Shown here: one piece after another, positions 25,845 to 42,602 of the stretch
How the letters are laid out: every line of letters begins with the position of its first letter
How positions within the stretch are numbered: the first letter of the stretch is position 1
NCBI GenBank assembly: GCA_964481755.1
Contig: CAYZVH010000001.1
Coordinates: forward strand, 2,337-66,336
Length of the DNA: 64,000 bases
Origin: an uncultured Bacteroides sp.
GTDB lineage: Bacteria; Bacteroidota; Bacteroidia; Bacteroidales; Bacteroidaceae
Direction of reading: 5' to 3'
Program-made: the position numbers and the translations under genes
Notes under the pieces: model-generated
What the model was told of the DNA's origin: nothing
The model's input: only the letters and a program-made list of their open reading frames with translations
Database searches by the model: none

Positions 25845-25866
25845 AAGTTTCTTTCTTGTTTAAGCG

Positions 25867-28800: not shown

Positions 28801-29091
28801 CTTGCCACTGCCGGGCAACACCACGGTACCACCTATCACGGCATCGCCGTTGGCATCCACTACTCGGCCACTATAGACCACTTCGCCACGTTTGCGTTGA
28901 GGCGTGTTGTCATCTTGTGCCGCTGACAACTGTCCTTTGACGGTTCCGCCCACGACGCGTTTCCCTGCGGCTGCCCCAACGTCCTGAGGCAACGACAGAA
29001 GCAACATCATCAAGCAGAAACCTACCTGCATAATCTTACTCTTCATACTTAATAACACTTGTTTCAATGTTAGTTTTTTACTCTTGTTCAT
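25867..29091 (-). CDS. SusC/RagA family TonB-dependent transporter
   Basis: 1074 aa with a carboxypeptidase-regulatory-like domain (GRVVDANGDAVIGGTVV), a plug domain, a barrel, and a C-terminal Phe. An alternative ATG at 29046 gives a cleaner signal peptide. Confidence 0.9.
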   Translation of the reverse strand: MNKSKKLTLKQVLLSMKSKIMQVGFCLMMLLLSLPQDVGAAAGKRVVGGTVKGQLSAAQDDNTPQRKRGEVVYSGRVVDANGDAVIGGTVVLPGSGKGVSTDADGRFSLSLPKSDRTTLQFSYVGMKTVTLSFNGQTDHTNIQVVLEDDNQLSEVIVNGVYTRKAESFTGSATTVSGKDLRRVSNQNLLQSLKNLDPTVYIADNLTMGSDPNSTPTISMRGTSSFPAETSSLKSSYQNQPNEPLFILDGFETSAERVKDLDMNRVESVTILKDASAKALYGSKAANGVIVIETKRLAGTEARISYNGSLDLEMPDLTSYDMTNALEKLQVERNEGIYDINSAYYNGGSATQQQTLTELYNQRYKLALEGLDTDWMAKPLRTGVGQKHNINIELGDARNLRGVLNFTYNDVAGVMKGSDRRNISGDVSLSYRRKNLLFKNILSVISNKSTDSPYGTFSDYVKMNPYWQAEDANGNVLRWAEVSNSNLSYGGNAVANPLYDATIGTSLESSYTEFTNNFYAEWTINPDLKATIRLGAEQKRNDVDQYYPANHSRFASYTKGTSAWDRRGLYIMENGKQTQLSGDLNVNYNHAFGKHHVFGNAGYFVSETKYQAYQHQAEGFSNETAADITFAHQYAEGTTPTGYASVNREMSFLLAASYDYDNRFLVDLTGRESASSLYGSDKRWADSWSAGLGWNVHNEPWLKNAEWLKLFKIRGSIGLTGNQNFSTNEAIATYSYYTGATYEGLTGAYLSRMPNSGLMWEQKKDYNVGFDFRAFGLSLSFDLYKADTKNMLTNVSIPTSTGFSTVKDNLGLVRNSGVEIKANYTPWQSRDGFVSIYGSFVYTKNRIISLSQSMREYNDRMLALAEDEDQTSPVLMYQDGLSMNTIWAVPSAGIDPQTGEEIYIKKDGTYTYTYDSSDMVAAGDATPKYRGNIGFSAEYKGFGLTATCTYLAGGQMYNSTLVDRVEDADMTYNVDRRVLTGRWKTPGDVTQYKGYSAKTTTRATTRFVQDRNELSISSISAYYEFPESIYAKLYMQRLRLSVYLNDVATFSSIKVERGTSYPFARTLSFALSATF

Positions 29092-29126
29092 TCTCTCTAT
29101 TCAATCATGTTATTTGATCTCATTTA

Positions 29127-29188
29127 TTTTCCTAACCAGAGAAATCTTTTTTCCTAACTAGGAAAATATATTTTCCTAACTAGGGAGA
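29127..29188. promoter_or_regulatory. Three 22-bp-phased TTTTCCTA-AC-TAGGAAAA palindromes in the susC leader
   Basis: Units lie at 29127-29144, 29149-29166 (perfect 8+8 arms) and 29171-29188. They sit between the -7 box at 29240 and the susC ATG. Confidence 0.6.
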
Positions 29189-29239
29189 AAAAATGGCTCA
29201 GTGGCAAGTGCCCCGAGCCTTCCCTCGGATAGAATGGAG

Positions 29240-29247
29240 CAAAGTTA
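29240..29247 (-). promoter_or_regulatory. -7 box (TAACTTTG) for the susC unit
   Basis: The reverse complement of caaagtta matches TAnnTTTG and implies a ~140-nt leader. Confidence 0.45.
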
Positions 29248-29421
29248 AGGATTTATTATAGCATGCAAGTATTTTTTACGTTAAATCCACAAATAATGTA
29301 GAGATTTCGTTCATTTGCCATCACCCGCGAATGACCTATATACTCGTTTACAGGAGACCTATTATCGACAAAGCCATGCGCATGGGGACTTGCGCAGGAC
29401 TTGCATACATAATAAGAAGCC

Positions 29422-29460
29422 GAGCGGCAGACGCAACCTCGTTGGTCGCTTCTGCCGCTC
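29422..29460 (-). terminator. Stem-loop after GH28
   Basis: A perfect 10-bp stem (gagcggcaga / tctgccgctc), 38 nt past the GH28 stop, followed by T-rich sequence on the minus strand. Confidence 0.55.
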
Positions 29461-29497
29461 GTATGCAGAGCCCCTCAGCAAGGGACTGTCGGTTCTT

Positions 29498-30907
29498 TTA
29501 CTTAACCTTCTTCCCGTTTATCTTCAGGTTGTCGTAGTGCACGTCCTTGGCTCCTACTACGGACACACCAGGGTCTTTCTCCACATTGTTGAAGATGCAG
29601 TTGCTCACGTGGATGTTCTCCACATTGTAGCGGTCGTCGTAGCCGGTTATCAGCACACCGTAGCGACTCTTCTGGCTGGTGACGTTGTCGAGGAACACGT
29701 TGCGCACGAAGGGCGGGAAACTGCGGTCGCACTGTTCGCGGCTCTCGTACACGAGGTTTATCTTGAGCACCGCCTCGCGGCACTCCCCTACCTCGACGTT
29801 GCGCACGTAGATGTTCTCTATCACACCGCCTCGGCAGTTGTTGGTCTTGATGCGGATGACACGCTCCAGGTTGGGGCTGTCCATCCGGCAATTCTCCACG
29901 AAGAGGTTGCGGAAGCCACCGGCTATCTCGCTGCCTATCACCACACCACCGTGTCCGTCCTTCATCGTGCAGTTGCGCACGACGATGTTCTCGCTGGGGA
30001 TGTTCCACTTGCGTCCGTCGGCGTTGCGTCCGCTCTTGATGGCTATGCAGTCGTCGCCGGTTTCAAATAAACAGTTTTCAATAAGCACGTTCTTGCACGA
30101 CTCGGGGTCGCAGCCGTCGCCGTTCGGTCCGTGGTTGATGACCTTCACGTCGCGCACCGTCAGGTTCTCACAGAAAAGGGGATGGATGCACCAGAATGGA
30201 GAGTTGCGCAAGGTGACCCCTTCGAGCAGCACCTCGTTACAACGGACGAAGTTCACCATCTGTGGGCGGAGTCCGTCGTCGATGGTCATCTGGCGTTTGT
30301 CTATCGGGGCGAAGGTCTCGGCGTAAGCCAACAGTTTGGCACGGCCGCCATTGCGCTGGGAGGTCATACCCTCCTTCCAGCCGTAGCGTTTGCTGTCGCC
30401 GCACATGGGCCACCAGGTCTCGTTGCTGCCTTGGGCATCGATGGTGCCTTCGCCCGTGATGGCGAAGTTACTCTCGCCATAGGCATAGATGAGCGGATGG
30501 AGGTTGTAGCAGTCCACGCCTTCCCAACGGGTGAGTACGGTGGGTGTATAGAGATGGAGGTCGAAGACGAACTTCAGCTCAGCATCCTTTTCAAGGTGGA
30601 GGTTCACGTTGCTCTTCATCGTGATAGGGCCGCAGTAGTAGACGCCAGCAGGCACCGTCACCGTGCCGCCGCCGTGCGTACTGCAGGTGGTGATGGCCAG
30701 GTTGATGGCATCGTGGCAGAGCTGTTCCTCGCCTTGCCACCCGGCTTTGGCTCCGAAGTCGAGGATGTTGTATACTTTGTCGCAGAAGGAAGGAGTCTCG
30801 ATGTTCTCCACTATCGCTTCACACTGTTTCCATGCGTCGGCGTTGTTTTGTGCCGCGACGGAGAGCATCGCGCAGAAAGCGCCAATGAGGCAGATTGTTT
30901 TTTTCAT
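29498..30907 (-). CDS. Glycoside hydrolase family 28 (polygalacturonase-like)
   Basis: Contains the GH28 beta-helix motifs NGDGCDPESC, TGDDCIAIKSG, GHGGVVIGSE and RIKT. The signal peptide starts at ATG 30905-30907. Confidence 0.85.
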   Translation of the reverse strand: MKKTICLIGAFCAMLSVAAQNNADAWKQCEAIVENIETPSFCDKVYNILDFGAKAGWQGEEQLCHDAINLAITTCSTHGGGTVTVPAGVYYCGPITMKSNVNLHLEKDAELKFVFDLHLYTPTVLTRWEGVDCYNLHPLIYAYGESNFAITGEGTIDAQGSNETWWPMCGDSKRYGWKEGMTSQRNGGRAKLLAYAETFAPIDKRQMTIDDGLRPQMVNFVRCNEVLLEGVTLRNSPFWCIHPLFCENLTVRDVKVINHGPNGDGCDPESCKNVLIENCLFETGDDCIAIKSGRNADGRKWNIPSENIVVRNCTMKDGHGGVVIGSEIAGGFRNLFVENCRMDSPNLERVIRIKTNNCRGGVIENIYVRNVEVGECREAVLKINLVYESREQCDRSFPPFVRNVFLDNVTSQKSRYGVLITGYDDRYNVENIHVSNCIFNNVEKDPGVSVVGAKDVHYDNLKINGKKVK

Positions 30908-30945
30908 GATAGCTATCGGTTTGAAGTGTTTAAAAGTTGTGGCAG

Positions 30946-30953
30946 CAAAAGTA
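30946..30953 (-). promoter_or_regulatory. -7 box (TACTTTTG) for GH28
   Basis: The reverse complement of caaaagta, 39 nt upstream of the GH28 ATG. Confidence 0.5.
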
Positions 30954-30957
30954 ATAC

Positions 30958-31007
30958 AAAAAAGCATATCTCCCTAACCGGACAGGTTCCAATTGGGAAG
31001 ATATGCT
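30958..31007 (-). terminator. Rho-independent terminator after the outer-membrane barrel gene
   Basis: A 12-bp stem with one bulge (gggaagatatgct / agcatatctccc), followed by a U6 tract on the minus strand. Confidence 0.7.
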
Positions 31008-31043: not shown

Positions 31044-32567
31044 TTAGAGGGAGACACCCACGCTTACCCACAGCTGGCGGTTGTCCTCGTCCATGCCGTC
31101 GTAGAATCCCTGTTGCCAACCAACCTCGGCGGTGAAGCCTAGGGTAGGTTTCAGCGTATGCATCCAGCGCACGGAGAGTCCATAGAGGGAGCAGCCTGCG
31201 CTCTGCATACGGTAGTTCTGCAGCAAAATCTGACGGGCATAGTTCACCGCTATGGTTCCAGCCTGCAGGTCTGCGTCCAGTTTCATCTGGCGAGCACCCC
31301 ACACGTGGCCTTCCACCACATCTTGATTGATGCGAAGGGAGGAGTTAAGTGCCAAGTTGACATCCACGTGGCTGTTTTCCATGATTTTGTCCAGCGAGGC
31401 ATAAGTGTCCTTACGATGGCGATAGTCCACAGCGGGCACTACGCTCCAGCGCCAGCAGTCGGTCTGCTGTTGTTCGTAGAAGAAGGAGAGACCCGCTTGC
31501 TGACGGTTGCTCTCGAAGGCATCCACCGAGGATATCAGCGGATAGAGGTTGCTGGCCGCATCACCGAAGAAGTTCTCCGTGCCGGTGCGGTCCTTGCAGG
31601 CCGCCTCCAGTTTGATGCCGTAAGCGTTTTGCGCACCAGCATGTTTCCAAGCCAGCTCGGCACCATACTCTGCGGTACTGCTCTCGTTGAGCTTGATGTT
31701 TCCTGGGTCGGGCAGTTTCTTCGTCAGCGAGGAGGAACGGAAGTAGGCTGCGCCCGAAATGCCGTTGCCGCTCAGAGGCAGCAGCGAGAGGGTCACGCCA
31801 TAGGTCATTCCTTCGTAGCTATAACTGTTGCGAGCACCGTCGAAACGGGTGTAGCTGGTACCCAAGCCGGTTAGTTGGAACGTTTTGCTCACTCCCAACT
31901 CATCAAAATAGGTAATGTTTCCGTTCTGTTTGTAGCGGTGCACCTCACCAGAGAGGCCCAAAGCGTAGTTTCGCAACGCATAGGTTCCACCCACACGGAA
32001 GTCCAAATCGGCGGTAATGTTACGTGGACGCGGATCGACATCGCGATACTCCAGCAACGCCTTGTAGCCGAAACTCAAGCCATAGGTCCAGCGGCCTGTG
32101 TGCTGGGCATAACCACCGTGGAAGTAGTAAGTCTCCGACTTCATGTCGCCACACAGACTGTCGGCCACCACGTAGGGATAGACTTGCTCGTAGTCGGAGG
32201 TCTCGTTCCATTTCACGTGGGTGCGGGTGCCGTTGCGGTAGTAGGCTTCGCCCCACACCCGCGAGTTGTCCGTCAACCGCACGTAGGAGTCTGCTGACAC
32301 ACGAAATCCTCGCCATCCGTCACCCTCCTCGACTACTAGAGGAGTGCTCTCCTTCTGGTTATCTATCGATACAGAGAGGTTGGAGAGTGACACTTGGTGG
32401 TGATAGAACTTCATGGCTGGGTTCTCAAAGGGAAGGGCCACGAAAGTCTCAGCCAGCGAGGAGTGCACCAGCGTGCGTGTAGACAGAGAGGTTGTGTCTG
32501 CCCCCTGTGCGAGGGAAGACACAACCATCAGTAGTAGTACTTGAATTGTTATCAGTCGTTGTTTCAT
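31044..32567 (-). CDS. Predicted outer-membrane beta-barrel protein (DUF6850-like, from memory)
   Basis: 507 aa with a signal peptide ending in AQG. Alternating aromatic/Gly-rich strands run throughout. It is the last gene of the TonB-receptor unit. Confidence 0.55.
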   Translation of the reverse strand: MKQRLITIQVLLLMVVSSLAQGADTTSLSTRTLVHSSLAETFVALPFENPAMKFYHHQVSLSNLSVSIDNQKESTPLVVEEGDGWRGFRVSADSYVRLTDNSRVWGEAYYRNGTRTHVKWNETSDYEQVYPYVVADSLCGDMKSETYYFHGGYAQHTGRWTYGLSFGYKALLEYRDVDPRPRNITADLDFRVGGTYALRNYALGLSGEVHRYKQNGNITYFDELGVSKTFQLTGLGTSYTRFDGARNSYSYEGMTYGVTLSLLPLSGNGISGAAYFRSSSLTKKLPDPGNIKLNESSTAEYGAELAWKHAGAQNAYGIKLEAACKDRTGTENFFGDAASNLYPLISSVDAFESNRQQAGLSFFYEQQQTDCWRWSVVPAVDYRHRKDTYASLDKIMENSHVDVNLALNSSLRINQDVVEGHVWGARQMKLDADLQAGTIAVNYARQILLQNYRMQSAGCSLYGLSVRWMHTLKPTLGFTAEVGWQQGFYDGMDEDNRQLWVSVGVSL

Positions 32568-32602
32568 GCGTTACTGTCGCAAAGTCGACCTATCGGTCTT
32601 AT

Positions 32603-33919
32603 TTATTCATGGAATTTGTAATACGGATCAGCCTCCACAGCCTCGAAGTCGAGCGAAGAGTCGTTGCTGTCCTGCAACTTCTTGCCAGCGGCTACACGAC
32701 GGCGAACAGCCTTGCCGTAACGATTAGCGTCTGCTGCTGTTTCTGTCACGTGGGTATAACCTTTATCCAAAGCAGGGCTTGTTACCAGCCATTCATATTC
32801 TGACAACGGGCAGAGGTTCACAGCATCGATAACCCAACTGTTAGGAATGGTCCAACATTTACTTTTCAGATCATAAGTTTTACCATTATAGGTATTGGTA
32901 AACTTATAGGCATAATTGTAATAGTTGGTAGAGTCAGCCATGAAAGCGTCGCCAGAAGCGTACTTGGTGTCGTCCAAACGAACCAGCGCATAAGCGCGGT
33001 TACCCTGTGTAGTCAGAGCAGTAATGGAAAGTGAGTAGGTGTAGATTCTCTCCAAGTTGGGTACGTCCGTATTATCCATATCGAGGAAGTTCGGGTTGCT
33101 CGACTCATCGTACCACTCGAAGTCAGCCTTAGTCAGGTCATAAGAGCTCGCATTATTATTACGATGGTCTACTGCGCAGTCAGCCAACAGGATGGACTCA
33201 CCCGGAGCCACGTAGAGGTTCGTTCCCATAGGGATGCGATACATAAAGTGGAACGAGAAGCGCTCGTTGATGAAGTTCGGGTTCATCTCGTCTCTCTTGG
33301 AGTTTGTCAACAGGTCGGACTCGGTGATAGCCAGTCCATCGGCAAGCAACGTATCATTGGAGTTGTTGTATACCCTGATGTAGGTATCGTAGTGATACTG
33401 TTTGCCTTCCGGAGTCTGTGTTCCAGCGAAGAAGATCTCTGCGATCACGAAGTCACCGCTGGCACCTTCGCTCTCTGCCTCGGGTGAATAGACGAAAGAG
33501 TTCTCAGCCTTCACGGGAATGTTGGCGGTCTCCTCGGTCATGGTGACAGCCTCTTGGTAAGAGCGGAGTCCTGTAGAAGTGCGGTCGCCATTATTGTCAT
33601 CGTAAGAGATGGTACCGTTCATGGTAATGTTGTAGAAGCCCTCGGGAACGGTAATCTCTACGGTCACAGACTGCTGATTTTCGCGAATCGCATCGGCTTT
33701 GGTATCCTTGGTTGTATAAGCCACGGACTCGACACCTGTGTTCACGTTCTTCACAATCACCTCGTTCAGAGTTACATCCGGATTCTTGCTCATCAAATAC
33801 TCCGGAGCCTGAAGTGTTACCTGTGTGGTTACCTTCTTAACGTCGTTGTCATCACAAGCGACAAAACTAATACCTGCCATCAAAAGGCAGCATGCAGAGA
33901 ATAATGTTCTTAATTTCAT
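32603..33919 (-). CDS. Lipoprotein with a lamin-tail-domain-like segment (DUF4876-like, from memory)
   Basis: 438 aa with lipobox ISFVAC followed by DDND. The LTD-like pattern FVIAEIFFAG...YIRVYNNSNDTLLADGLAI lies at 33314-33457. Confidence 0.55.
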   Translation of the reverse strand: MKLRTLFSACCLLMAGISFVACDDNDVKKVTTQVTLQAPEYLMSKNPDVTLNEVIVKNVNTGVESVAYTTKDTKADAIRENQQSVTVEITVPEGFYNITMNGTISYDDNNGDRTSTGLRSYQEAVTMTEETANIPVKAENSFVYSPEAESEGASGDFVIAEIFFAGTQTPEGKQYHYDTYIRVYNNSNDTLLADGLAITESDLLTNSKRDEMNPNFINERFSFHFMYRIPMGTNLYVAPGESILLADCAVDHRNNNASSYDLTKADFEWYDESSNPNFLDMDNTDVPNLERIYTYSLSITALTTQGNRAYALVRLDDTKYASGDAFMADSTNYYNYAYKFTNTYNGKTYDLKSKCWTIPNSWVIDAVNLCPLSEYEWLVTSPALDKGYTHVTETAADANRYGKAVRRRVAAGKKLQDSNDSSLDFEAVEADPYYKFHE

Positions 33920-33938
33920 ACGATGTTATTGTTATATG

Positions 33939-36719
33939 TTATAGTTTTATATTCATTTCCATACCGAAATAGGGACTTGCCGCCGTGCGGCGCACCTCTA
34001 CCCCATTGCGTGTGTAGTCGGGCACATAGTCCACCAACCGGTCGATGAAGAGCGACATACCGATGTTCTTGGTAAACTCCTTCGTCACCTTGAAGTTGAG
34101 GTAGGCATAGAATGGAGTACGGAGTTTATCGCCACTTACGCGCGTTTCTCTGACAAGATACCGTTTATAGATATCACTCTTGTCTGCTTCGGTGTAATGG
34201 TGTTGTTCACCGGTCGTGTCGATGTAGGCGATAGGTGTACCATCAGTGTCTTTGTTTTGCGACATGGAGTACCACTGGCACTCTGCCGTGACGCTAAACT
34301 TCAGTCCCAACTTGGGCAAGGCGGTATCAATGATAAAATTGGTATTGAAATACTCGCGCAAGTAGTCGTCCACCTGGTTGTAGATGCCGACGTACAAGTC
34401 GCTCACATAGACGTTGCCAATGACATTGGATACACTATAGTACTGCGGCACGCTGTTCTGGTAGAGGGTGCGGAACCAAGCGCCGTTCACCGTGAAGCGT
34501 GTGTTGATGCCCTTGAAACGTTCGGTAGCAAGTTGGAACTCGATGCCTTGCTTCAGTGTGCGGCTACCATTACCGGTCTGGCTGTATCCGTCCAAACGGG
34601 TCTTCACCTCGTACGGAGTAGTCTCCAACGAAGGAGGTCCCGTGAGGGTGGTCGCGTCGATGGTGCTCTCATCATAGTCCTTGTACGTATAAGGCAGGTA
34701 CTGGGCTATCGAGCGGAATCCGTTCTTCATATCCTCGCGGAAGTAGGTAATGGATAAGGTATTCTTGTGGTAATCGAAACCCAAGCGCACCTCCCACTTC
34801 AGGTTCTTCGCAGGTTTAATGTCGTAGTTCGTAGAATCTACGATATACGAGACGAGATTCACCCGGCGGTAGTCCTTATTGGTGTGGTAGTAACTCATCT
34901 GTGCGATGTCGTGATAGAGCGTCTCGGGATAGAGCATGTCCAGCGTAGGCATCTTCGTAAGGTAACCGATACCTGCGGTGAGGTCGATGTTCAGTTTGTC
35001 CTTACCCAAGTTAATAGCAGGCAGTTTCCACTGTGCGTTGGCACGCGGGTCGAGGTAGTACTTGCCGTTCATAGCAAAGCGACTGTCGAGGTTGAGCAAC
35101 GAATTGGCACTCACACCCAACTGTAGCTCGAACTGATGTTTGCCCCACGAGGTCTGCATGCGGTCCTCTACGAAGAAAGAGACCTTCTCCGACGCGGGGA
35201 TGTCGCAGTACCGACGCGGACGAGTACTGTGATACGTAGGGTCGAGCGGACGGGTGATGTCGTACACCTGACCCTCGCCATAGTTCTTGGCATAGTTCCA
35301 CTTGCCGCCTACCAACCACTTGTGACGGATGAATCCGGTCTGCTGCTCGAAGTGTGCGTTGAGCGAAGCGTAGAGACTCAACGGTTTGCCGTCCACCGTT
35401 AGGTAGGCCATATATTTATAAGGTAATATCTCGGCATCGTATTCCTCACCGCTGTATTGGGTGATGTGCGTGGGAGCCACGCGGTCGCGGTCGAGCACGG
35501 TCAGACGCGAACGTTTAATCTTGTCCCACGACATGTTGGCGGAGAAGTTCATCTCGATGCTATGCAAGAAACGCTCCTTCACCGGAGTCACCGTGAAGAG
35601 GTTGGTCAATGCCAACGAGTTGTAGCTCGACTTGTAGTTGTCCTCGGGAGTCTTCTCTATATCGGGGTCTGTCTTTGCACCGTCGATATTGACATTATAG
35701 GAAGCCGTCGCATTCCAGCGAAGCACATATTTCGAAGGGTACCACCGTTTGGAGGTACGGACAGATGCGTTGATGCGTTTGTAGTTCTCGTGGCGGTCGC
35801 GCGGATCGGCTTTGGAGTCCATATAGCTGAGGTCACCACTGAGCACGAAGTTCTGTCTCTCCCACTCCACACCTTTTCCGGCAGAGAAGAGTTTGCCATA
35901 TTGGTCCGCCTTGAAGCGTGCCTCCAAGGGGGAGGCGGAAAGTTTGCGCTTAATCAGCACCAAGCCGCTGGTCAGGTCGCTATATTGTACGGAAGGGATA
36001 CCGCGGATAATCTCCACGCTCTCGATGTTGTCGGTGGAAATCTGTCGCATGTCCACACCGGCGTTCACGGAACTGCGGTCGCTGAAATCCGTGATGTCCG
36101 ACGTGACAGACTGCAGGTTAGCATCAACATTGATGGGGGTACCGTCAATGACGAACTGTGTACCGAGGGAGCCGGTGTTGTAATTGGAACTGGAAATGTC
36201 CGCCTCTCGGAGCGTGATGGTGTTGGCCTTGTTCATCACCGGATTGCTGGTGGAACCACCGGGGAGCAGTGCCAACAGGTCGGTGAAGCTGGTGGGCTGC
36301 AGGTGTTCCATCGCCGTGCGGTCGATACGCGAAGCGCTGGTGATGTCCCTCGACTCGGAAGCCGTCACCACCACCTCGTGCAGATTCTCTTCCAAAGGTT
36401 TCAGGTAGAGCGTAAGGAAGAGGTTCTTCTTGAGGGATACCGGACGGGAGAGCGACTGGTAGCCCACGTAGCTGACGGTGAGCGTAGCCTCATCCTTACC
36501 AAGGGAGACATTCAGCAGGTTGAATTTACCTTTCTCGTCAGAAGCTGTGCCTACGACTTTGCCTTCGGCTGTCTTCACCTGTATGGTAGCGAAAGGCAAC
36601 GGCTGGCGGGTCTGTTCGTCACTTATTATACCAGAGACGCTGACTGGAAGGGATTGAGCTGTGGCGTACGTCGCGAACATCAGCAGCCCAGTAAAATAAT
36701 TCAATATTCTTCGTATCAT
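33939..36719 (-). CDS. TonB-dependent receptor with an N-terminal carboxypeptidase-regulatory-like domain
   Basis: About 926 aa with GIISDEQTRQPLPFATIQV, a plug domain and a barrel. The track ORF start is a GTG at 36746 that overlaps a -7 box, so ATG 36717-36719 is preferred. Confidence 0.85.
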   Translation of the reverse strand: MIRRILNYFTGLLMFATYATAQSLPVSVSGIISDEQTRQPLPFATIQVKTAEGKVVGTASDEKGKFNLLNVSLGKDEATLTVSYVGYQSLSRPVSLKKNLFLTLYLKPLEENLHEVVVTASESRDITSASRIDRTAMEHLQPTSFTDLLALLPGGSTSNPVMNKANTITLREADISSSNYNTGSLGTQFVIDGTPINVDANLQSVTSDITDFSDRSSVNAGVDMRQISTDNIESVEIIRGIPSVQYSDLTSGLVLIKRKLSASPLEARFKADQYGKLFSAGKGVEWERQNFVLSGDLSYMDSKADPRDRHENYKRINASVRTSKRWYPSKYVLRWNATASYNVNIDGAKTDPDIEKTPEDNYKSSYNSLALTNLFTVTPVKERFLHSIEMNFSANMSWDKIKRSRLTVLDRDRVAPTHITQYSGEEYDAEILPYKYMAYLTVDGKPLSLYASLNAHFEQQTGFIRHKWLVGGKWNYAKNYGEGQVYDITRPLDPTYHSTRPRRYCDIPASEKVSFFVEDRMQTSWGKHQFELQLGVSANSLLNLDSRFAMNGKYYLDPRANAQWKLPAINLGKDKLNIDLTAGIGYLTKMPTLDMLYPETLYHDIAQMSYYHTNKDYRRVNLVSYIVDSTNYDIKPAKNLKWEVRLGFDYHKNTLSITYFREDMKNGFRSIAQYLPYTYKDYDESTIDATTLTGPPSLETTPYEVKTRLDGYSQTGNGSRTLKQGIEFQLATERFKGINTRFTVNGAWFRTLYQNSVPQYYSVSNVIGNVYVSDLYVGIYNQVDDYLREYFNTNFIIDTALPKLGLKFSVTAECQWYSMSQNKDTDGTPIAYIDTTGEQHHYTEADKSDIYKRYLVRETRVSGDKLRTPFYAYLNFKVTKEFTKNIGMSLFIDRLVDYVPDYTRNGVEVRRTAASPYFGMEMNIKL

Positions 36720-36745
36720 ATACTGACTGTTCAGTTTTCCGAGCA

Positions 36746-36753
36746 CAAAAGTA
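36746..36753 (-). promoter_or_regulatory. -7 box (TACTTTTG) for the TonB-receptor unit
   Basis: The reverse complement of caaaagta, 27 nt upstream of ATG 36719. Confidence 0.5.
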
Positions 36754-36860
36754 TTTTGTCCCGGAAAAACCTACAATCATTATATGTTGGTATTTCGGTA
36801 GGTACACTTACCTACGAATATGTATTCTACAACATAAAATTGGTCTCAAAGTGGCCTCTA

Positions 36861-37298
36861 TCAGAAGCCGGTGCTAGGCACAACGATGCCTATGCCATCG
36901 TCCTCCGCCCAAAGCCAAGCGTACTGACTGTCCTTCTTGAGCAGGTAAACATTGGTGACACTGTTCAAGTCGGTCGTCATAGAGCTGCTGACGCGTCCGT
37001 TCACCTTTTCCTCCTCGGTAGGCCAGCCGTCCATCTGCAGAGTAAACTGCTTGCCGGTGGAGAGGTCGGTGACACTCAGCACGGCATTGTCGGGCAAGCA
37101 GTAGAACTGACAGTTGAGCTTGTCGAAGGCTACGAGGGTGGTTCCATTCTTATAAATGCCCAGCTCAGAGCTGGTGGCGAAGGCCGCCCGTTGCTTCTCG
37201 TATTTGTAGGTATCGTCGGAACACGATGCCATCAGAAGCATCATGCCTATACCTACTATATATATATAATAATGTATGCTCTTCATTTCTCTTTTCAT
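36861..37298 (-). CDS. Small lipoprotein of unknown function
   Basis: 145 aa with lipobox LLMASC followed by SDD. Its ATG directly abuts the stop codon of the M6-like gene (TAAATG). Confidence 0.7.
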   Translation of the reverse strand: MKREMKSIHYYIYIVGIGMMLLMASCSDDTYKYEKQRAAFATSSELGIYKNGTTLVAFDKLNCQFYCLPDNAVLSVTDLSTGKQFTLQMDGWPTEEEKVNGRVSSSMTTDLNSVTNVYLLKKDSQYAWLWAEDDGIGIVVPSTGF

Positions 37299-39467
37299 TT
37301 ATTGTACGTTGAAATAGCGGGTGTAGTAGGCCTTGTAGCCGCTTTGGGTCTCCACCTCGGCACGCACCTCGTGGTCACCGGCGGACAACTTACAGAAGTT
37401 GAACGACTGCTCGCCATCGATGGTCCAGGTGATGGACTTCACCGTGCCGACACCGTTGAGGTAAACCAGATAATAGTCCGGCTGTTGCTCGAGGGGCGAA
37501 ACCAACTCCATCTCCGCTTGGTAGGAGTAGGAAGATACGCCCGTGATGAAGCTGAAAGTCTGCTCCACGTCGGCCGACCCGGTGATGGTCACCTCGTAGA
37601 TGGTGTTAGGCGTGAGGCCGCTCAGATGGAGAGTCTTCTCCGTCACCTCCTGGCTGTTATTATAGCTCCTATCGCGCTGGGCCTTCCAAGCGACGGTCCA
37701 TTTGTCGGACATGTCGTCGCTCCACGAGAAGACCACATCGTTTTGGTAGACGCTCAGCTCTTCGATGCAGATGCCGCCCACCGTGAAGGTGACGGTTCCA
37801 TCCGCCAGAGCGATGTTGTGCAATTCGTAGTTAGGCGTATCACCCTGCCACGAAGCATAGTATTTGTTGGTGGACTTCTGTAGCTTGGTCACTTCGAAGC
37901 CTCCTGGGAAGAAGGCATTGGCCGGATAGTTGACCACCATGTCCGCCACGGGATAAGAGCAGATTACCTTCATACACTCCATCCCCGATATGGCATTGAG
38001 CGTGTTGTTGTACCAGTAATTGGAGTTGGAGTAGTCGATATGGTAAACCAGCAATCCTTGGTAAGCCGTGGCTCCAGAGCCGTAGCTGGCACTGTAGCGT
38101 GTCAGGTACTCAGCCTTGTCCCACACCTGGTCGCCCTTGCCACGGTACTCCAGCAGGAAGTAGTCGTTGGTGCTGGGGGTACCTATCAAAAAACCTTTGT
38201 CATGCGTCACAGGGTACAGGGTGTAGCTGCCCGAGGCGGTAATCTCTTCGGGTTCAGCCCAACCCACCATCCAGCGTTCGAGGATGCTCAGCGCAGGAGG
38301 GGTATGCGATTCGTTGTTGTAGTCGCCGGAGTCCATCAGCGAGTAGAGGGACGGTCCGTAGTTTTGTCCGTTCTTCTCGTAGTTGGTATCGTAGAAATCG
38401 GGCCAGCCCAACACATGACCAAACTCGTGGCAGAAAGCGCCGATACCGGTGAGGCAAATCGTGCCATCGTTGGTTTTCATGAGCTCAGCAGAACAAGCAT
38501 AGCCCGACAAACTCACCCCGTCGAGTGTCAAACCACTAGCGACGGTGCTGCGGTGGGGCCAAATGCCGTCAGGGTCAGCTCCATCGGCCTCGCCACCTCC
38601 CGAGTAGAAGATGAAGACATCCTTGGCCGTTCCATCCACAGCATACTGACTGAAGTCCACATCGCCCGCGTCGTGGGCCAGCGTGCAAACCTCGGCTGCC
38701 ATCTCGCGGGCCTTGGCATCTTCGTTGGCGGTGTAGTAGCTCCGCTCGTTGGAGAGTTTGTAGGGACCTAGCACCACATACTCGGGGTCGAACCGTCCGT
38801 TGGAGTTGTCGTAGTAGTATTGCCAAGCGCTTCCCGTGGCACCGTTATAGGAGTAGTTGTGTCCGTTGAGCATCTCGTTGAAGTTTTGTCGCGTACCTTC
38901 GGTGAATGGGAGGTCGGGAAACTCAGCCAACAACACCACATACTTCTGCTTGCCGGTGGTGGGGAAACTTTGGTTGCGGATGCGATCCGGCACCTTATAC
39001 TGGGTGGAGACAGCCGCCTTGGTAGACTTAGCCGCTGCAGTTGTCTGGTTCGGCGTGGCCCACGACTCCATCATCTCCTTGGCACGTTCGCTCATCGCCT
39101 GCGGACGCACGCCCTTCTCGATAGCGGTAGTGGAACCGGCCCGGGTACTCAACGGGTTATTACCAGGAAACTTATTCTGTGCTTTCACCTCGGTTGGGGC
39201 CAACAGTCCGGCAGGGTCGAGCGTGGCATAGTAGTAGTTGCCATCGTCACCACGCACCAGTGTGTAGCCATCCTCGGAGAGGGCATAGTGGCTGAACTCG
39301 TCGCCATGGAGCGTGACGCGCAGCACGGTTCCGTCCTTTTGCTTCACCGTGACGACACCGCTACGGGCAGGTATCGCCAGGGTTTGTGGTATACAAATAC
39401 CATATATGGCCAGCCCAATGAGCCAGCCACATACATTACTAACATATTTATTCATCGAATAAGACAT
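37299..39467 (-). CDS. M6 (immune inhibitor A)-like secreted metalloprotease with C-terminal Ig/FN3-like domains
   Basis: 722 aa with a signal peptide. CHEFGHVLGWPDFYD and DGIWPHRS resemble M6 signature motifs. Confidence 0.7.
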   Translation of the reverse strand: MSYSMNKYVSNVCGWLIGLAIYGICIPQTLAIPARSGVVTVKQKDGTVLRVTLHGDEFSHYALSEDGYTLVRGDDGNYYYATLDPAGLLAPTEVKAQNKFPGNNPLSTRAGSTTAIEKGVRPQAMSERAKEMMESWATPNQTTAAAKSTKAAVSTQYKVPDRIRNQSFPTTGKQKYVVLLAEFPDLPFTEGTRQNFNEMLNGHNYSYNGATGSAWQYYYDNSNGRFDPEYVVLGPYKLSNERSYYTANEDAKAREMAAEVCTLAHDAGDVDFSQYAVDGTAKDVFIFYSGGGEADGADPDGIWPHRSTVASGLTLDGVSLSGYACSAELMKTNDGTICLTGIGAFCHEFGHVLGWPDFYDTNYEKNGQNYGPSLYSLMDSGDYNNESHTPPALSILERWMVGWAEPEEITASGSYTLYPVTHDKGFLIGTPSTNDYFLLEYRGKGDQVWDKAEYLTRYSASYGSGATAYQGLLVYHIDYSNSNYWYNNTLNAISGMECMKVICSYPVADMVVNYPANAFFPGGFEVTKLQKSTNKYYASWQGDTPNYELHNIALADGTVTFTVGGICIEELSVYQNDVVFSWSDDMSDKWTVAWKAQRDRSYNNSQEVTEKTLHLSGLTPNTIYEVTITGSADVEQTFSFITGVSSYSYQAEMELVSPLEQQPDYYLVYLNGVGTVKSITWTIDGEQSFNFCKLSAGDHEVRAEVETQSGYKAYYTRYFNVQ

Positions 39468-39473
39468 TCCGAG

Positions 39474-40511
39474 TTAGAAAAAACGGGGTTTCACATACTT
39501 GTCCTTGTAAGAGGTGAAGGAGAGTATGGAGAACGAAGACTCGTCGTCCTCAATCACCTTCTTGCGTATCAACGAGAAGTCGTCGGCGGAGAGGGCGTAG
39601 TAGCACATCTCCGTGTCTGTGGTCACACGCACAGTCCAATCGAACATGTTGCCGAATATCAGCAGTCCGTCCTTCTCGGGGTCATAGGATTCCACACCGG
39701 TCATTATCACCTCGTAGCTCTTGTTGAGCAACACGTAGAAGTGGTTGTCCACGTCGGTGAGATAGCCCAGTGTCTGACGGTTGGTGAACTCTGTTACGAA
39801 CAGATGTTTCAGTTTCAGTCCCTCGGGCAGGTCGATGGCACGCACATAGGGGCGACCTTTCGTCATCTTCACATGGAAGAGTTTACCCTCGTTGTCCAGT
39901 ATCAAGTAACCCTCGTCGTACTCCTTGCGGGCGCTGGGGTTGCCGGCTATCTCGGTAGCGGGAAATACGAAACCTTTCTTCTTCAGCATCAAGGTGAAGA
40001 GCTCGCTCTTCTGCTCGTCAATGGAGTTGGTCTCCATCTTCACGAACTCCATACCCTTGGAGTTGATGCGGAACACATCGTCGGGCATGGTCAATTCCAC
40101 GCGCTTGGACATGCTCTCCATCAAGGGGTAGAGGCCAACCTTGGGAGCGTTGAAGTCCTGGGCGGAGGCACGGAAGTTGAAGTTATTCACCTGCACCTCA
40201 CGCGGCGTGATGCCCACGCCATTGATGGTGTCGGGGAAGCGCTCGTCGGCCATCAGCTGACGGACGTAGAAGAAGGGCAACAGACTGTCGGCCTGTTCCT
40301 GAGTATATTCGTTACCGGACTCGTCCACACGAATCAGTTTGCCTTTCTCGTCATCGAAGCCCATCGTAACGAACTCGCCCTTCAAAGTACTGTAGATGCA
40401 GAAGGTCGACTTCGAGGGAGAAGCAGTGAAGAAGGAGTAGCACCAAGGCAGTTGCCACATCAAAATGAGGGCGACTGTGATGCCTAAAAATATCTTGCTA
40501 AAGCGTATCAT
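39474..40511 (-). CDS. Membrane-anchored accessory protein (DUF4857-like, from memory)
   Basis: 345 aa with a single N-terminal TM segment (IFLGITVALILMWQLPW). It follows the ABC permease by 30 nt. Confidence 0.5.
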   Translation of the reverse strand: MIRFSKIFLGITVALILMWQLPWCYSFFTASPSKSTFCIYSTLKGEFVTMGFDDEKGKLIRVDESGNEYTQEQADSLLPFFYVRQLMADERFPDTINGVGITPREVQVNNFNFRASAQDFNAPKVGLYPLMESMSKRVELTMPDDVFRINSKGMEFVKMETNSIDEQKSELFTLMLKKKGFVFPATEIAGNPSARKEYDEGYLILDNEGKLFHVKMTKGRPYVRAIDLPEGLKLKHLFVTEFTNRQTLGYLTDVDNHFYVLLNKSYEVIMTGVESYDPEKDGLLIFGNMFDWTVRVTTDTEMCYYALSADDFSLIRKKVIEDDESSFSILSFTSYKDKYVKPRFF

Positions 40512-40541
40512 TGTTCTGTGTTTAATAGTTTGTGTATCCGT

Positions 40542-41210
40542 TTAATCCTGTTTGCCCATCTTGAAGCGGTTGATGGAGAGCCACGAGAAACTGATGCTCA
40601 GCAGAGTGAAGAGCACCATCCAAGGCAAGAATCCAGTGTAGGCCTCGGGCAAGGTGGAGAGGAAGAACACCCGCAGGACGAGCAGCGTCACTATGAAGTT
40701 AAGCACGCGACATTTCCATGTCGGCTCCAGACAAATCCAAGCCACCAACAGGTAAGACTCCACACCGGCCAGATACCATGGTATGGCCGTGAGCAACACC
40801 CGGTTGTAGAGTTCTGGTGCGAGGATGCCCTGCAGATAAGCGAACATCAGGATGAAGTTGGTAGCGAAGCAGACACAGAGGGCCACGATGCCGTAGAGCA
40901 ACATGAAGTTGACCATCTTCAGCTGCGGGTAAGGCAGGTGGAGCGTCAGCTTCAGACACTTACGGTACATCTCGGGCACGAACTGCACCACAGCGAAGAG
41001 GATGCCCACCAACAGGGGCACATACTGAATTAACTCGATGAAAGTGGTATCCTTCATCAACATAATCTCCCACACGTGGGCCACACCCTTCAGGTTGACC
41101 ACCTTATTGATGCGCAGCATAGCGTATCCGGCAAATCCTAGGGTCACTACCAAGGCCAAGAGCGAATACCAGCGCGTCTTTATCCATTCCTTATAAAATA
41201 TAGCGTTCAT
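40542..41210 (-). CDS. ABC-2-type permease-like membrane protein (6 TM)
   Basis: About 222 aa with six hydrophobic segments. The track start at 41234 is a TTG, so ATG 41208-41210 is preferred. Confidence 0.65.
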   Translation of the reverse strand: MNAIFYKEWIKTRWYSLLALVVTLGFAGYAMLRINKVVNLKGVAHVWEIMLMKDTTFIELIQYVPLLVGILFAVVQFVPEMYRKCLKLTLHLPYPQLKMVNFMLLYGIVALCVCFATNFILMFAYLQGILAPELYNRVLLTAIPWYLAGVESYLLVAWICLEPTWKCRVLNFIVTLLVLRVFFLSTLPEAYTGFLPWMVLFTLLSISFSWLSINRFKMGKQD

Positions 41211-41230
41211 CTTTCTTTCGTATTTACCAA

Positions 41231-42118
41231 TCAATATTTTCCGGTCAAGCCGATGAAGGCATCTTCCAGGTTCACACTCTCACACTTCAGGTCCTCGTAG
41301 GGAACGTTGAGTGAGCGGAGGCTATTCTCCACCTCGTCCTTGGTGAGGAACGAGAACGTTTCCAGTTCAGTGCGGATAACCGAGGGGTGGTAGAAGCGCT
41401 TGTCCTCGGGCATCACGTAGCCTTCTGGCACCTTGCAGGTGAAGCGGTGCAGGGTGGAGAGCAACTCACCCACAGGTTGTTGCACCAGGATGCTACCGTA
41501 GTCCATGATGATGCAGTCGTCAATCAGGCGCTCCATATCCTGGATGATGTGTGAGGTGAGGAAGACGGTCTTGTTCTCGGAACGGGCATAGTCGCGCAGG
41601 TAGTCGACGAAGAGTCGGCGGTAACCAGGGTCGAGTCCCAAGGAGAAGTCGTCGAGGATAAGCAGTTCGGGGTTCTGTGCGAGGATGATGCCCAGGGCCA
41701 CCTGCGAGCGCTGACCGCATGACATGCGTGAGATGAGTTGTCCGGGAGCCACCTTAAGTTTCTCCATCAAGCCATAGTAGGCATCCTTGCGCCACTGGCC
41801 GGGGTAGAAAGCCGAGTAGAATTTCTCTATCTCACGGATGGTCATGAACTGATACTGCACATGGCCTTCGATAAGCAAACCGATGTTCTTACGCAGTGAA
41901 GGTTGCATGTGGCTAATCTCTTCGCCAAAGATGCGGCACTCGCCGGAGCGCGGTTGCAGATATCCGCTCAAGATGTTGATAGTGGTCGTTTTTCCCGTTC
42001 CGTTCTTTCCCAAGAGACCCAGTATGCGTCCTTTGGGAACATTGAAACTCAGATTCTCGTAAATCATCCGCTTACCGTAGTAGTGCGTCAGATTCTTGCA
42101 TTCAATGATATTCTCCAT
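41231..42118 (-). CDS. ABC transporter ATP-binding protein
   Basis: Walker A GKNGTGKTT, signature MSCGQRSQ and Walker B LLILDD are present. The track start is a TTG at 42142, so ATG 42116-42118 is preferred. Confidence 0.9.
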   Translation of the reverse strand: MENIIECKNLTHYYGKRMIYENLSFNVPKGRILGLLGKNGTGKTTTINILSGYLQPRSGECRIFGEEISHMQPSLRKNIGLLIEGHVQYQFMTIREIEKFYSAFYPGQWRKDAYYGLMEKLKVAPGQLISRMSCGQRSQVALGIILAQNPELLILDDFSLGLDPGYRRLFVDYLRDYARSENKTVFLTSHIIQDMERLIDDCIIMDYGSILVQQPVGELLSTLHRFTCKVPEGYVMPEDKRFYHPSVIRTELETFSFLTKDEVENSLRSLNVPYEDLKCESVNLEDAFIGLTGKY

Positions 42119-42183
42119 ATCCGTTATATGTCTATTTACCAAATTCGTGTGTGTAAGTCTTTGTACCAGAATGTTTCAGCCCG

Positions 42184-42191
42184 CAAAGTTA
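42184..42191 (-). promoter_or_regulatory. -7 box (TAACTTTG) for the ABC/M6 unit
   Basis: The reverse complement of caaagtta, ~66 nt upstream of ATG 42118. Confidence 0.45.
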
Positions 42192-42293
42192 GAGTTTAAA
42201 GAGTTTCGTGCAAATACCCATAAGTAGGTATTTATGTTATTTAAAATAGTATCACAGTTACCTTGTGACTATCAGACGCCCGCAGTTATACAC

Positions 42294-42325: not shown

Positions 42326-42334
42326 CTGCTCTTG

Positions 42335-42407
42335 TGGTGCCAACGGGAATCGAACCAGTGACACAAGGATTTTCAGTCCTTTGCTCTACCAACTGAGCTA
42401 TGGCACC
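42335..42407 (-). tRNA. tRNA-Phe (GAA)
   Basis: A 73-nt cloverleaf: acceptor GGTGCCA/TGGCACC, anticodon loop CTGAAAA, T-loop TTCGATT. There is one U-C mismatch in the T-stem. CCA is not encoded. Confidence 0.85.
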
Positions 42408-42524: not shown

Positions 42525-42597
42525 CGGAAAGTAGCGCAGTTGGTAGCGCACTACGTTCGGGACGTAGGGGTCGGGCGTTCGAGTCGCCTCTTTCCGA
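42525..42597 (+). tRNA. tRNA-Pro (CGG)
   Basis: A 73-nt cloverleaf: acceptor CGGAAAG/CTTTCCG, anticodon stem CTACG/CGTAG, loop TTCGGGA, T-loop TTCGAGT. Confidence 0.9.
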
Positions 42598-42602
42598 CGA
42601 TC

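Follow-up and report, generated by a model that had tools for sequence, protein, structure and literature searches.

A cluster of eight co-oriented genes at positions 31,044-42,191 of a stretch of 64,000 nucleotides from an uncultured Bacteroides sp. (contig CAYZVH010000001.1; the whole stretch is here called the window) may encode an acquisition system that reaches across the cell envelope and is regulated by iron starvation, a reading to which a probability of about one in two is given. The cluster would represent a lineage-specific rearrangement of the operon type found in Bacteroides thetaiotaomicron as BT3633-BT3625, and would resemble the Fus and YddAB-PqqL systems in its action. It consists of one unit with an ATP-binding cassette (ABC) ATPase, a permease, a DUF4857 protein, an M6-family protease and a small lipoprotein, followed by a second unit with a TonB-dependent receptor (TBDR), a DUF4876 lipoprotein and a DUF6850 β-barrel. 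The observations behind this reading are the gene content, the conserved linkage of the units, the operator and regulon that they share and the protein folds.

The relationship to the B. thetaiotaomicron operon emerges from a genome scan anchored on DUF4857, in which 241 relatives were found in 185,579 species genomes; the best 80 of these, together with L001, a metagenome contig from an independent assembly that is identical to the window, provided 81 loci for comparison. ABC ATPase, permease and DUF4857 form an invariant series in every locus with sequence on that side, and the TBDR unit stands beside it in 75 of the 75 informative loci, the other six being short contigs. The usual order is TBDR, DUF4876, DUF6850, a Cys-rich lipoprotein of ~194 amino acids (aa), a PepSY_TM_like_2 protein of ~190 aa, ABC ATPase, permease and DUF4857. 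The ABC unit is placed ahead of the receptor unit in L001-L004, and the order of the window (ABC ATPase, permease, DUF4857 and then TBDR) is met again in L214, which belongs to an independent, distant lineage (its DUF6850 is 32% identical). The lipoprotein/PepSY pair is absent from these same five loci and present in almost all others. An earlier reading of the letters alone (the sequence-only reading) had proposed from adjacency that the two units are functionally linked, and their constant neighbourhood, along with the common operator in a common register described below, strengthens that proposal. Independent occurrence of the two units, which would have spoken against the sequence-only reading, runs in one direction: the DUF4857 unit is never seen without the receptor unit in the informative loci, but TBDR-DUF4876-DUF6850 triads without an ABC unit do exist (L212, L213 and L089). 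That DUF6850 accompanies TBDR and DUF4876 in these ABC-less loci assigns it to the receptor unit.

Locus L041, from a B. thetaiotaomicron metagenome-assembled genome (MAG), has the canonical order and corresponds to BT3633-BT3625, in which BT3631, annotated as DUF4876, is DUF6850 by Pfam. The window shares with this operon type the orthologous ATPase, permease and DUF4857 (80%, 66% and 56% identical to those of L041), plus a TBDR with DUF4876 and DUF6850. It differs in having the ABC unit first and two promoters instead of one, in lacking the Cys-rich lipoprotein, the PepSY_TM-like protein and the fimbrillin-like BT3630, and in carrying an M6/lipoprotein cassette. BT3625-BT3633 are reported to be induced 37-128-fold under iron depletion (PMC10434189), and a related Porphyromonas gingivalis receptor/DUF4876 locus, PG1019-22, shows 21-214-fold induction. 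The cluster had been regarded in the sequence-only reading as uncharacterised. This no longer holds in full, given the published iron-starvation response of the orthologous operon (PMC10434189) and a solved DUF4876 structure; literature searches for BT3625-BT3633, DUF4857, DUF4876 and DUF6850 yielded transcriptomic or predictive mentions only, and neither a substrate nor a mechanism.

Both units are preceded by the same type of operator. Operator 1, the palindrome AAATACCTACTTATGGGTATTTGC, lies at 42210-42233 on the minus strand and scores 23.0 bits; operator 2, AAATACCAACATATAATGATTGTA, lies on the same strand at 36772-36795 and scores 22.1 bits. Operator 1 precedes the -7 box of the ABC unit and operator 2 that of the TBDR unit, each by 20 nt. 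The consensus is an 18-20-bp palindrome of the form (A/T)ATACC-N8-GGTATTG, with GCGATTG or GTGATTG as variants of the last part. A position weight matrix trained on 20 species, with the window lineage excluded, ranks the two window operators first and second of 127,954 positions in the 64 kb, the next best reaching 12.9 bits against a background in the window with a mean of -30.6 and a standard deviation of 9.1 bits. Across 45 operon promoters anchored on the -7 box the operator sits at a fixed 20 nt from that box and overlaps the -33 region, and both window operators are in this same register. In L214 one operator stands before each unit, and close relatives of the B. thetaiotaomicron operon bear the same promoter-proximal operator type as the window, at 16.5-18.4 bits (the promoter of L041 itself is cut off). 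An exact ATACC-N8-GGTAT palindrome is also found inside the DUF4876 coding sequence, at 33370-33387, where it is retained, with changes, in L001-L003. As a third operator it was rejected, since its score is only 11.9 bits and no -7 box stands in register with it, and it is probably due to chance.

The iron connection is extended by the genes that follow this operator elsewhere. A metagenome scan for the operator and a -7 box in register returned at least 120 loci, about four of which, among the matches listed, are the same operon. The matches listed include 64 non-redundant first downstream genes, amongst which are 11 TonB-dependent receptors, seven DUF4856 genes, four FeoA-FeoB fusions and three hemerythrins. 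As the operator precedes feoAB, receptor and other genes, the box marks an iron-uptake regulon, and the operator is a candidate binding site for an iron regulator of the Bacteroidota. The classical Fur box has the sequence GATAATGATAATCATTATC; it was considered as an explanation and the operator is unlike it. According to a 2025 preprint, no Fur homologue or iron regulator of the Bacteroidota has yet been reported. The triad locus L213 has a FUR-family gene 3.8 kb downstream. The literature on P. gingivalis PG1019 holds regulation data, concerning CdhR, and no operator was found there.

The arrangement of the window could be verified in some detail. All eight open reading frames are present on the minus strand at the coordinates that they were originally given, each with a match to a family or homologue, and the -7 boxes, terminator, gaps, HEFGH motif, six-helix permease and single-helix 345-aa protein of the sequence-only reading are all borne out. 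The ABC ATPase and the permease start at ATG 42118 and ATG 41210 respectively, as taken from the gene calls of L001, which leaves 20 nt between them. A gap of 30 nt separates the permease from DUF4857 and one of 6 nt separates DUF4857 from the M6 gene, whose stop codon abuts the ATG of the lipoprotein (TAAATG; 0-nt gap). In the second unit the gaps are 19 nt (TBDR to DUF4876) and 35 nt (DUF4876 to DUF6850), and there is one intergenic region of 114-141 nt 5' of the receptor gene. The -7 boxes, read from the sequence, are TAACTTTG at 42184-42191 (minus strand), which is of the Bacteroides type and fits TAnnTTTG, and TACTTTTG at 36746-36753 (minus strand), of the same TAnnTTTG type. The second unit ends at an intrinsic terminator at 30958-31007 (minus strand), a hairpin of -30 kcal/mol with a z of -3.8 followed by UUUUUUG. 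A sigma-70-type promoter scan was uninformative for Bacteroides, and the terminator was missed by the scan and confirmed by folding. The same arrangement is seen in the independent assembly L001 and in the MAGs L002 and L003 from other samples, whilst L004 is the same without the M6 pair; protein identity in the three MAGs is 85-99% for the genes outside that pair. This recurrence in L001-L004 means that the window arrangement is not an assembly artefact.

The receptor unit opens with the TBDR (33939-36719, minus strand), a protein of 926 aa with a CarboxypepD_reg-like N-terminal domain, a plug and a barrel (PF13715, 7e-17; PF07715, 4.7e-10). ATG 36719 is most likely its start, the alternative GTG at 36746 falling within the -7 box. 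The protein does not match the SusC model (TIGR04056) and is not of the SusC type, and phmmer against all PDB chains, among which is YddB (6ofr) and presumably also FusA, returned nothing at E <= 1e-3. Its orthologues in canonical operons are 39-57% identical and the window receptor belongs to the subtype of Phocaeicola and B. cellulosilyticus (39-57%), with only 24% identity to the receptor of B. thetaiotaomicron. The second gene (32603-33919, minus strand) encodes a 438-aa surface lipoprotein with the lipobox FVAC followed by DDND, a predicted receptor lid that belongs to DUF4876 (PF16215, 4.8e-49) and matches the solved structure 4q1z at 5e-8. The LTD-like domain that had been ascribed to it was rejected, as there is no Pfam LTD match at E <= 0.01 and the protein is DUF4876. 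Lids of this family have been predicted for BT3632 and BT1938, capping BT3633 and BT1939, with a large predicted opening of about 20 Å (bioRxiv 10.1101/2023.03.17.533168). The third protein is the DUF6850 outer-membrane β-barrel of 507 aa and about 18 strands (31044-32567, minus strand; PF21012, 8e-94). Its AlphaFold2 model (predicted local distance difference test, pLDDT, 83.5; predicted TM-score, pTM, 0.81) has 18 long strands, and Foldseek finds generic large barrels only, such as those of TonB-dependent transporters and FadL, at TM-scores of 0.3-0.4.

The ABC unit begins with a 295-aa ATPase (41231-42118, minus strand) whose nucleotide-binding domain is of the DrrA/GldA/NosF/ABCA kind (PF00005, 5.6e-24). 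It scores under the cutoffs of all NCBIfam equivalogs, has ABCA3 and ABCA1 as its best PDB matches with NosF at 1.5e-21, and is 69-85% identical in about 75 species outside the window lineage. The 222-aa permease (40542-41210, minus strand) has six hydrophobic segments and belongs to an orphan family, with identities of 51-73% outside the window lineage, a mean column identity of 77% across genera and invariant His, Glu and Met residues. No match to it was found in Pfam, NCBIfam or the PDB, even with a seven-sequence profile at E <= 10, and one member of its family touches ABC2_membrane_2 at E = 0.049. The 'ABC-2' label therefore derives from the subfamily of the ATPase and from topology. DUF4857 (39474-40511, minus strand; 345 aa; PF16149, 2.7e-111), 50-67% identical outside the window lineage, is modelled by AlphaFold2 (pLDDT 85, pTM 0.80) as a single N-terminal membrane helix followed by a periplasmic β-propeller-like domain. 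As with the barrel, Foldseek offers generic matches only, here to WD40 proteins and propellers at TM-scores of 0.2-0.3. The top match was BtuK1, a B12-binding surface lipoprotein, and homology to it was rejected at a TM-score of 0.20.

The protease of the window is a 722-aa M6-family zinc metalloprotease (37299-39467, minus strand; TIGR03296, 5.1e-46, at 157.8 bits against a cutoff of 110.8; PF05547, 4.9e-14; InhA 4yu5, 7e-6) with the HEFGH motif and an fn3-like C-terminal region. It has the catalytic pattern HExxH...GxPDxY, with HEFGHVLGWPDFYD present, and a Sec signal peptide (...TLA|IPARSG), cleavage lying before I/V-PAR-P/S-G in all homologues read. There is no lipobox and no match to a C-terminal domain of the type IX secretion system (T9SS), and T9SS export was rejected on the latter ground. 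A Sec signal without lipobox or T9SS domain is consistent with a periplasmic enzyme, its presumed compartment. The partner of the protease is a lipoprotein of 145 aa (36861-37298, minus strand) with the lipobox LMASC followed by SDD. Homologues of this small family of ~140-aa lipoproteins (51 clusters at 50% identity) have 137-144 aa, are 28-36% identical, share a WLW motif and lie 3' of an M6 gene in every unfused context sampled. In P0248, of 839 aa, the M6 protein continues at its C-terminus into the lipoprotein domain (residues 713-838), and this Rosetta-stone fusion suggests that the window protease and lipoprotein act together. P0238, P0255 and P0256 are also long M6 proteins, of 842-843 aa, and may be the same fusion.

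This pair proves to be an independent two-gene cassette, and not a fixed part of an exporter unit with accessory protein, protease and lipoprotein as the sequence-only reading had it. It lies 5' of DUF4876-type receptors (TBDR-DUF4876-DUF6850) in three arrangements, represented by the window lineage, L015/L031 and L082/L083, with its own operator in L082. Of these, L015 belongs to B. cellulosilyticus DSM 14838 and is a canonical operon with M6 added. It also lies 5' of SusC/SusD pairs together with two further genes (L084-L088 and L211), and stands alone in L209 and L210. Close M6 homologues occur in SusCD loci that also contain Peptidase_Mx1/DUF4302 genes, and others lie beside histidine-utilisation genes. 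The iron box is restricted to cassette copies that adjoin DUF4876-type receptors, the SusCD-linked or solitary copies having no operator. Finally, the cassette is absent from L004, whose DUF4857 is 88% identical, and from about 70 other DUF4857 operons. From this distribution the cassette belongs with the transporter and not with the ABC unit, so that the protease, which also carries its own Sec signal, is not 'exporter-linked'. The idea that it serves the receptor gains support from the recurrence of zinc metalloproteases, whether M6 or M16, beside the triads. In contigs of Bacteroidota, PqqL/FusC-type M16 proteases adjoin the triads at L212:11627-14404, L213:11519-12922 and L089:3722-6574; the M16 protease is of 925-950 aa and its best characterised PDB relatives are PqqL (1e-66) and 6b03/6brs (3e-30), the latter being presumably FusC. 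In L089 the M16 gene is transcribed divergently, from the far side of a 97-nt intergenic region with the iron box, and the triad is followed by an HMA metal-binding protein.

These findings can be accommodated in a working model. At low iron, a repressor would leave the ATACC-N8-GGTAT/GATTG operators that overlap the -33 regions and both units would be transcribed. The TBDR, capped by DUF4876 and accompanied by the 18-strand DUF6850 barrel, would capture and import an iron-bearing ligand. In the window lineage the Sec-exported M6 protease and its ~140-aa lipoprotein would degrade a proteinaceous carrier and free the metal or cofactor, as FusC and PqqL do, and the ATPase, permease and DUF4857 would form an inner-membrane/periplasmic leg that handles released metal, cofactor or spent carrier. 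This last role is the weakest step of the explanation, its direction and cargo being presumed: candidate tasks for the ABC/DUF4857 unit are transport of the released metal, its extraction and the expulsion of the spent carrier. Its ATPase class would make the unit an exporter or, like NosDFY, a mechanotransducer.

In Fus and YddAB-PqqL (PMC6793856, PMC6071955) a small iron protein enters through a TonB-dependent transporter and is cut by a periplasmic zinc protease, an ABC transporter is co-encoded and the set is under iron control; the published survey covered Proteobacteria only (PMC6793856). The window likewise encodes a receptor of the TonB-dependent kind together with an ABC transporter and a zinc metalloprotease exported through Sec, for which the operator suggests a similar iron control, and related Bacteroidales triads (L212, L089) carry the PqqL/FusC-type M16 protease itself. 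In contrast, the protease of the window is M6 and not M16, no M16 gene being present in the 64-kb window, a lid lipoprotein and a second barrel are added, there is no dedicated TonB (FusB) and the phylum is different. FusD/YddA is a fused half-transporter, whereas the ABC unit of the window is composed of a separate ATPase, a six-helix permease and an anchored propeller. As its protease, TBDR and ABC architecture do not agree with those of Fus, the cluster is not a member of that system but would work like it.

Several points weigh against an iron-regulated system of this Fus-like kind. The link of the window itself to iron is drawn from orthology and the operator motif. The TBDR has no detectable sequence similarity to FusA or YddB, and B. 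thetaiotaomicron mutants in BT3632/3633 have no phenotype in 519 fitness assays. The Cys-rich lipoprotein/PepSY_TM-like pair of the canonical operon was not found by tblastn in the cluster or in the whole 64-kb window. Since most operons, and L004, are protease-free, the core system needs no protease. The M6 cassette, found also beside SusCD loci or alone without the operator, may be a general peptide-foraging module. Moreover, the small lipoprotein has an acidic, surface-export-like CSDD signal that fits poorly with a periplasmic protease. Lastly, the ABC systems known to have an ATPase of this class are exporters or mechanotransducers and not importers.

Some of these points lead directly to the best-placed alternative, the uptake of a low-molecular-weight iron chelate such as a xenosiderophore in the manner of XusABC, in which a periplasmic/inner-membrane module releases or moves the iron and the M6 cassette is a peptide-foraging passenger. 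This is rather unlikely. The canonical operon has a PepSY_TM-like protein, of a class found in siderophore systems such as XusC, the protease is missing from most operons and the cassette is also found with SusCD loci or alone, without operator. Furthermore, the preprint by Price ascribes small substrates to lidded non-SusC transporters (bioRxiv 10.1101/2023.03.17.533168). Set against this, it is precisely the PepSY_TM-like pair that the window lineage has lost whilst gaining a protease, and two unrelated protease families recur beside the triad, one with an iron box of its own and the other across a shared iron-box region. The large opening predicted for the DUF4876 lid, at about 20 Å, also speaks against a chelate. 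XusABC of B. thetaiotaomicron pairs a non-SusC TonB-dependent transporter with a lid lipoprotein at the cell surface, is regulated by iron and to that extent resembles the window; its PepSY-type membrane protein is paralleled in the canonical operon and not in the window. Its lid, XusB, is DUF4374 where that of the window is DUF4876, there being no DUF4374 or XusC-type PepSY protein amongst the eight window proteins, and it has no ABC/DUF4857 unit, second barrel or protease.

The Fus-like reading can also be taken further, although in this bolder form it is a rather doubtful proposition. Gut Bacteroidales might possess a protein-piracy route to iron built from families without a characterised member. 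In such a route the lidded TBDR and the 18-strand barrel would import a small metalloprotein and a periplasmic M6 or M16 protease would dismantle it. The ABC-2-like ATPase and permease would drive the DUF4857 propeller for metal extraction and hand-over, as in NosDFY, and not for transport. The iron would then enter via FeoAB of the same regulon, and the box would be the operator of a master iron regulator of the Bacteroidota.

The comparison with NosDFY is one of general architecture. NosDFY(L) and GldAFG are ABC-2-type ATPase/permease pairs with a periplasmic accessory protein. The ATPase of the window is of the same broad class (GldA model 3.9e-36; NosF as above), its six-helix permease is likewise paired with a periplasmic partner and the position of NosL is occupied in the canonical operon by the small Cys-rich lipoprotein. 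However, the periplasmic partner in the window is the β-propeller-like DUF4857 and not the NosD β-helix or GldG, the permease matches no ABC-2 model and TIGR03522 is hit at 125 bits against an equivalog cutoff of 402.6, with no match to GldF or GldG. SusCD/RagAB shares with the window a Bacteroidota TonB-dependent transporter with a lipoprotein cap, and the M6 cassette lies 5' of some SusCD pairs elsewhere, but no SusC or SusD model is matched in the window cluster at E <= 0.01. The sequence-only reading was thus correct that the cluster is neither a polysaccharide utilisation locus nor GldAFG, to which it can be added that it is not Xus.

The sequence-only reading had also suggested a secretion-plus-uptake circuit, in which the protease releases a ligand and the receptor imports it. 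In the form considered here, ABC ATPase, permease and DUF4857, perhaps together with DUF6850, would export a factor such as a chelator, a hemophore-like protein or the used ligand, to be retrieved in loaded form by the receptor. This is improbable. It is true that the ATPase is of the exporter-type DrrA/ABCA/NosF class, that the permease, short and with six helices, is laid out as in such exporters, that a plug-less second barrel is conserved beside the receptor and that export and import parts would be co-regulated. Nothing in the data points to secretion by the ABC unit, however: there is no conserved biosynthetic or candidate cargo gene in about 75 loci and no membrane-fusion or adaptor protein in the cluster, DUF6850 goes with the receptor in the ABC-less triads and the protease has its own route through Sec. 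Very improbable, finally, is that the locus serves the use of peptides or proteins as nutrients and has nothing to do with metals, the protease producing peptides for import by the receptor and the regulator of the operator sensing something other than iron. M6 homologues do occur in SusCD loci with Peptidase_Mx1/DUF4302 or beside histidine-utilisation genes. On the other side stand the iron induction of the orthologous operon, the feoAB genes behind the operator in metagenomes, the HMA metal-binding protein after the L089 triad and the lack of an operator at SusCD-linked M6 copies.

Some further observations concern the canonical operon and the surroundings of the cluster. The ~194-aa lipoprotein (L049:7215-7799, L015:7228-7806) has conserved CTHxCKHG and GCxSEKK motifs, belongs to no Pfam family and lacks an acidic signal for surface export; a role as metal chaperone in the periplasm is possible. 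L041 has an extra lipoprotein with Mfa_like_1 and Fib_succ_major matches (L041:5512-7137, BT3630) between DUF6850 and the Cys-rich lipoprotein, and BT3630 serves as a secretion carrier in the literature (PMC11554821). In L002, L004, L025 and L053 a Bacteroidaceae operon is found in MAGs titled Anaerovoracaceae, Acutalibacteraceae, Coprobacillus and Desulfovibrionaceae, which suggests that bins in that MAG series are contaminated. Immediately ahead of the ABC promoter, tRNA-Phe(GAA) (42334-42407, minus strand) and tRNA-Pro(CGG) (42525-42598, plus strand) form the upstream boundary, and a rearrangement breakpoint is possible at these two genes because synteny with other genera breaks there. Downstream, at 24294-30967 on the minus strand, is a separate unit that is probably a pectin-type utilisation locus. 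It begins after the terminator with a GH28 galacturonidase-like gene (29498-30967) that has its own TACTTTTG box, and continues with a SusC-like gene (25867-29091) and a SusD-like gene (24294-25844).

The acquisition of iron by gut Bacteroides during inflammation is only partly understood, the named routes being Xus and Hmu. The operon type described here is amongst the most strongly iron-induced loci of B. thetaiotaomicron and occurs in about 240 species genomes. The locus type itself has been published; the window has it in a rearranged, protease-carrying form that lacks the PepSY pair. By gaining a protease and dropping a reductase-like pair, the window variant points to protein-bound iron as the class of ligand; until now, descriptions of protease-associated import have come from Proteobacteria alone. 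The shared operator, moreover, provides a handle on the iron regulator of the Bacteroidota.

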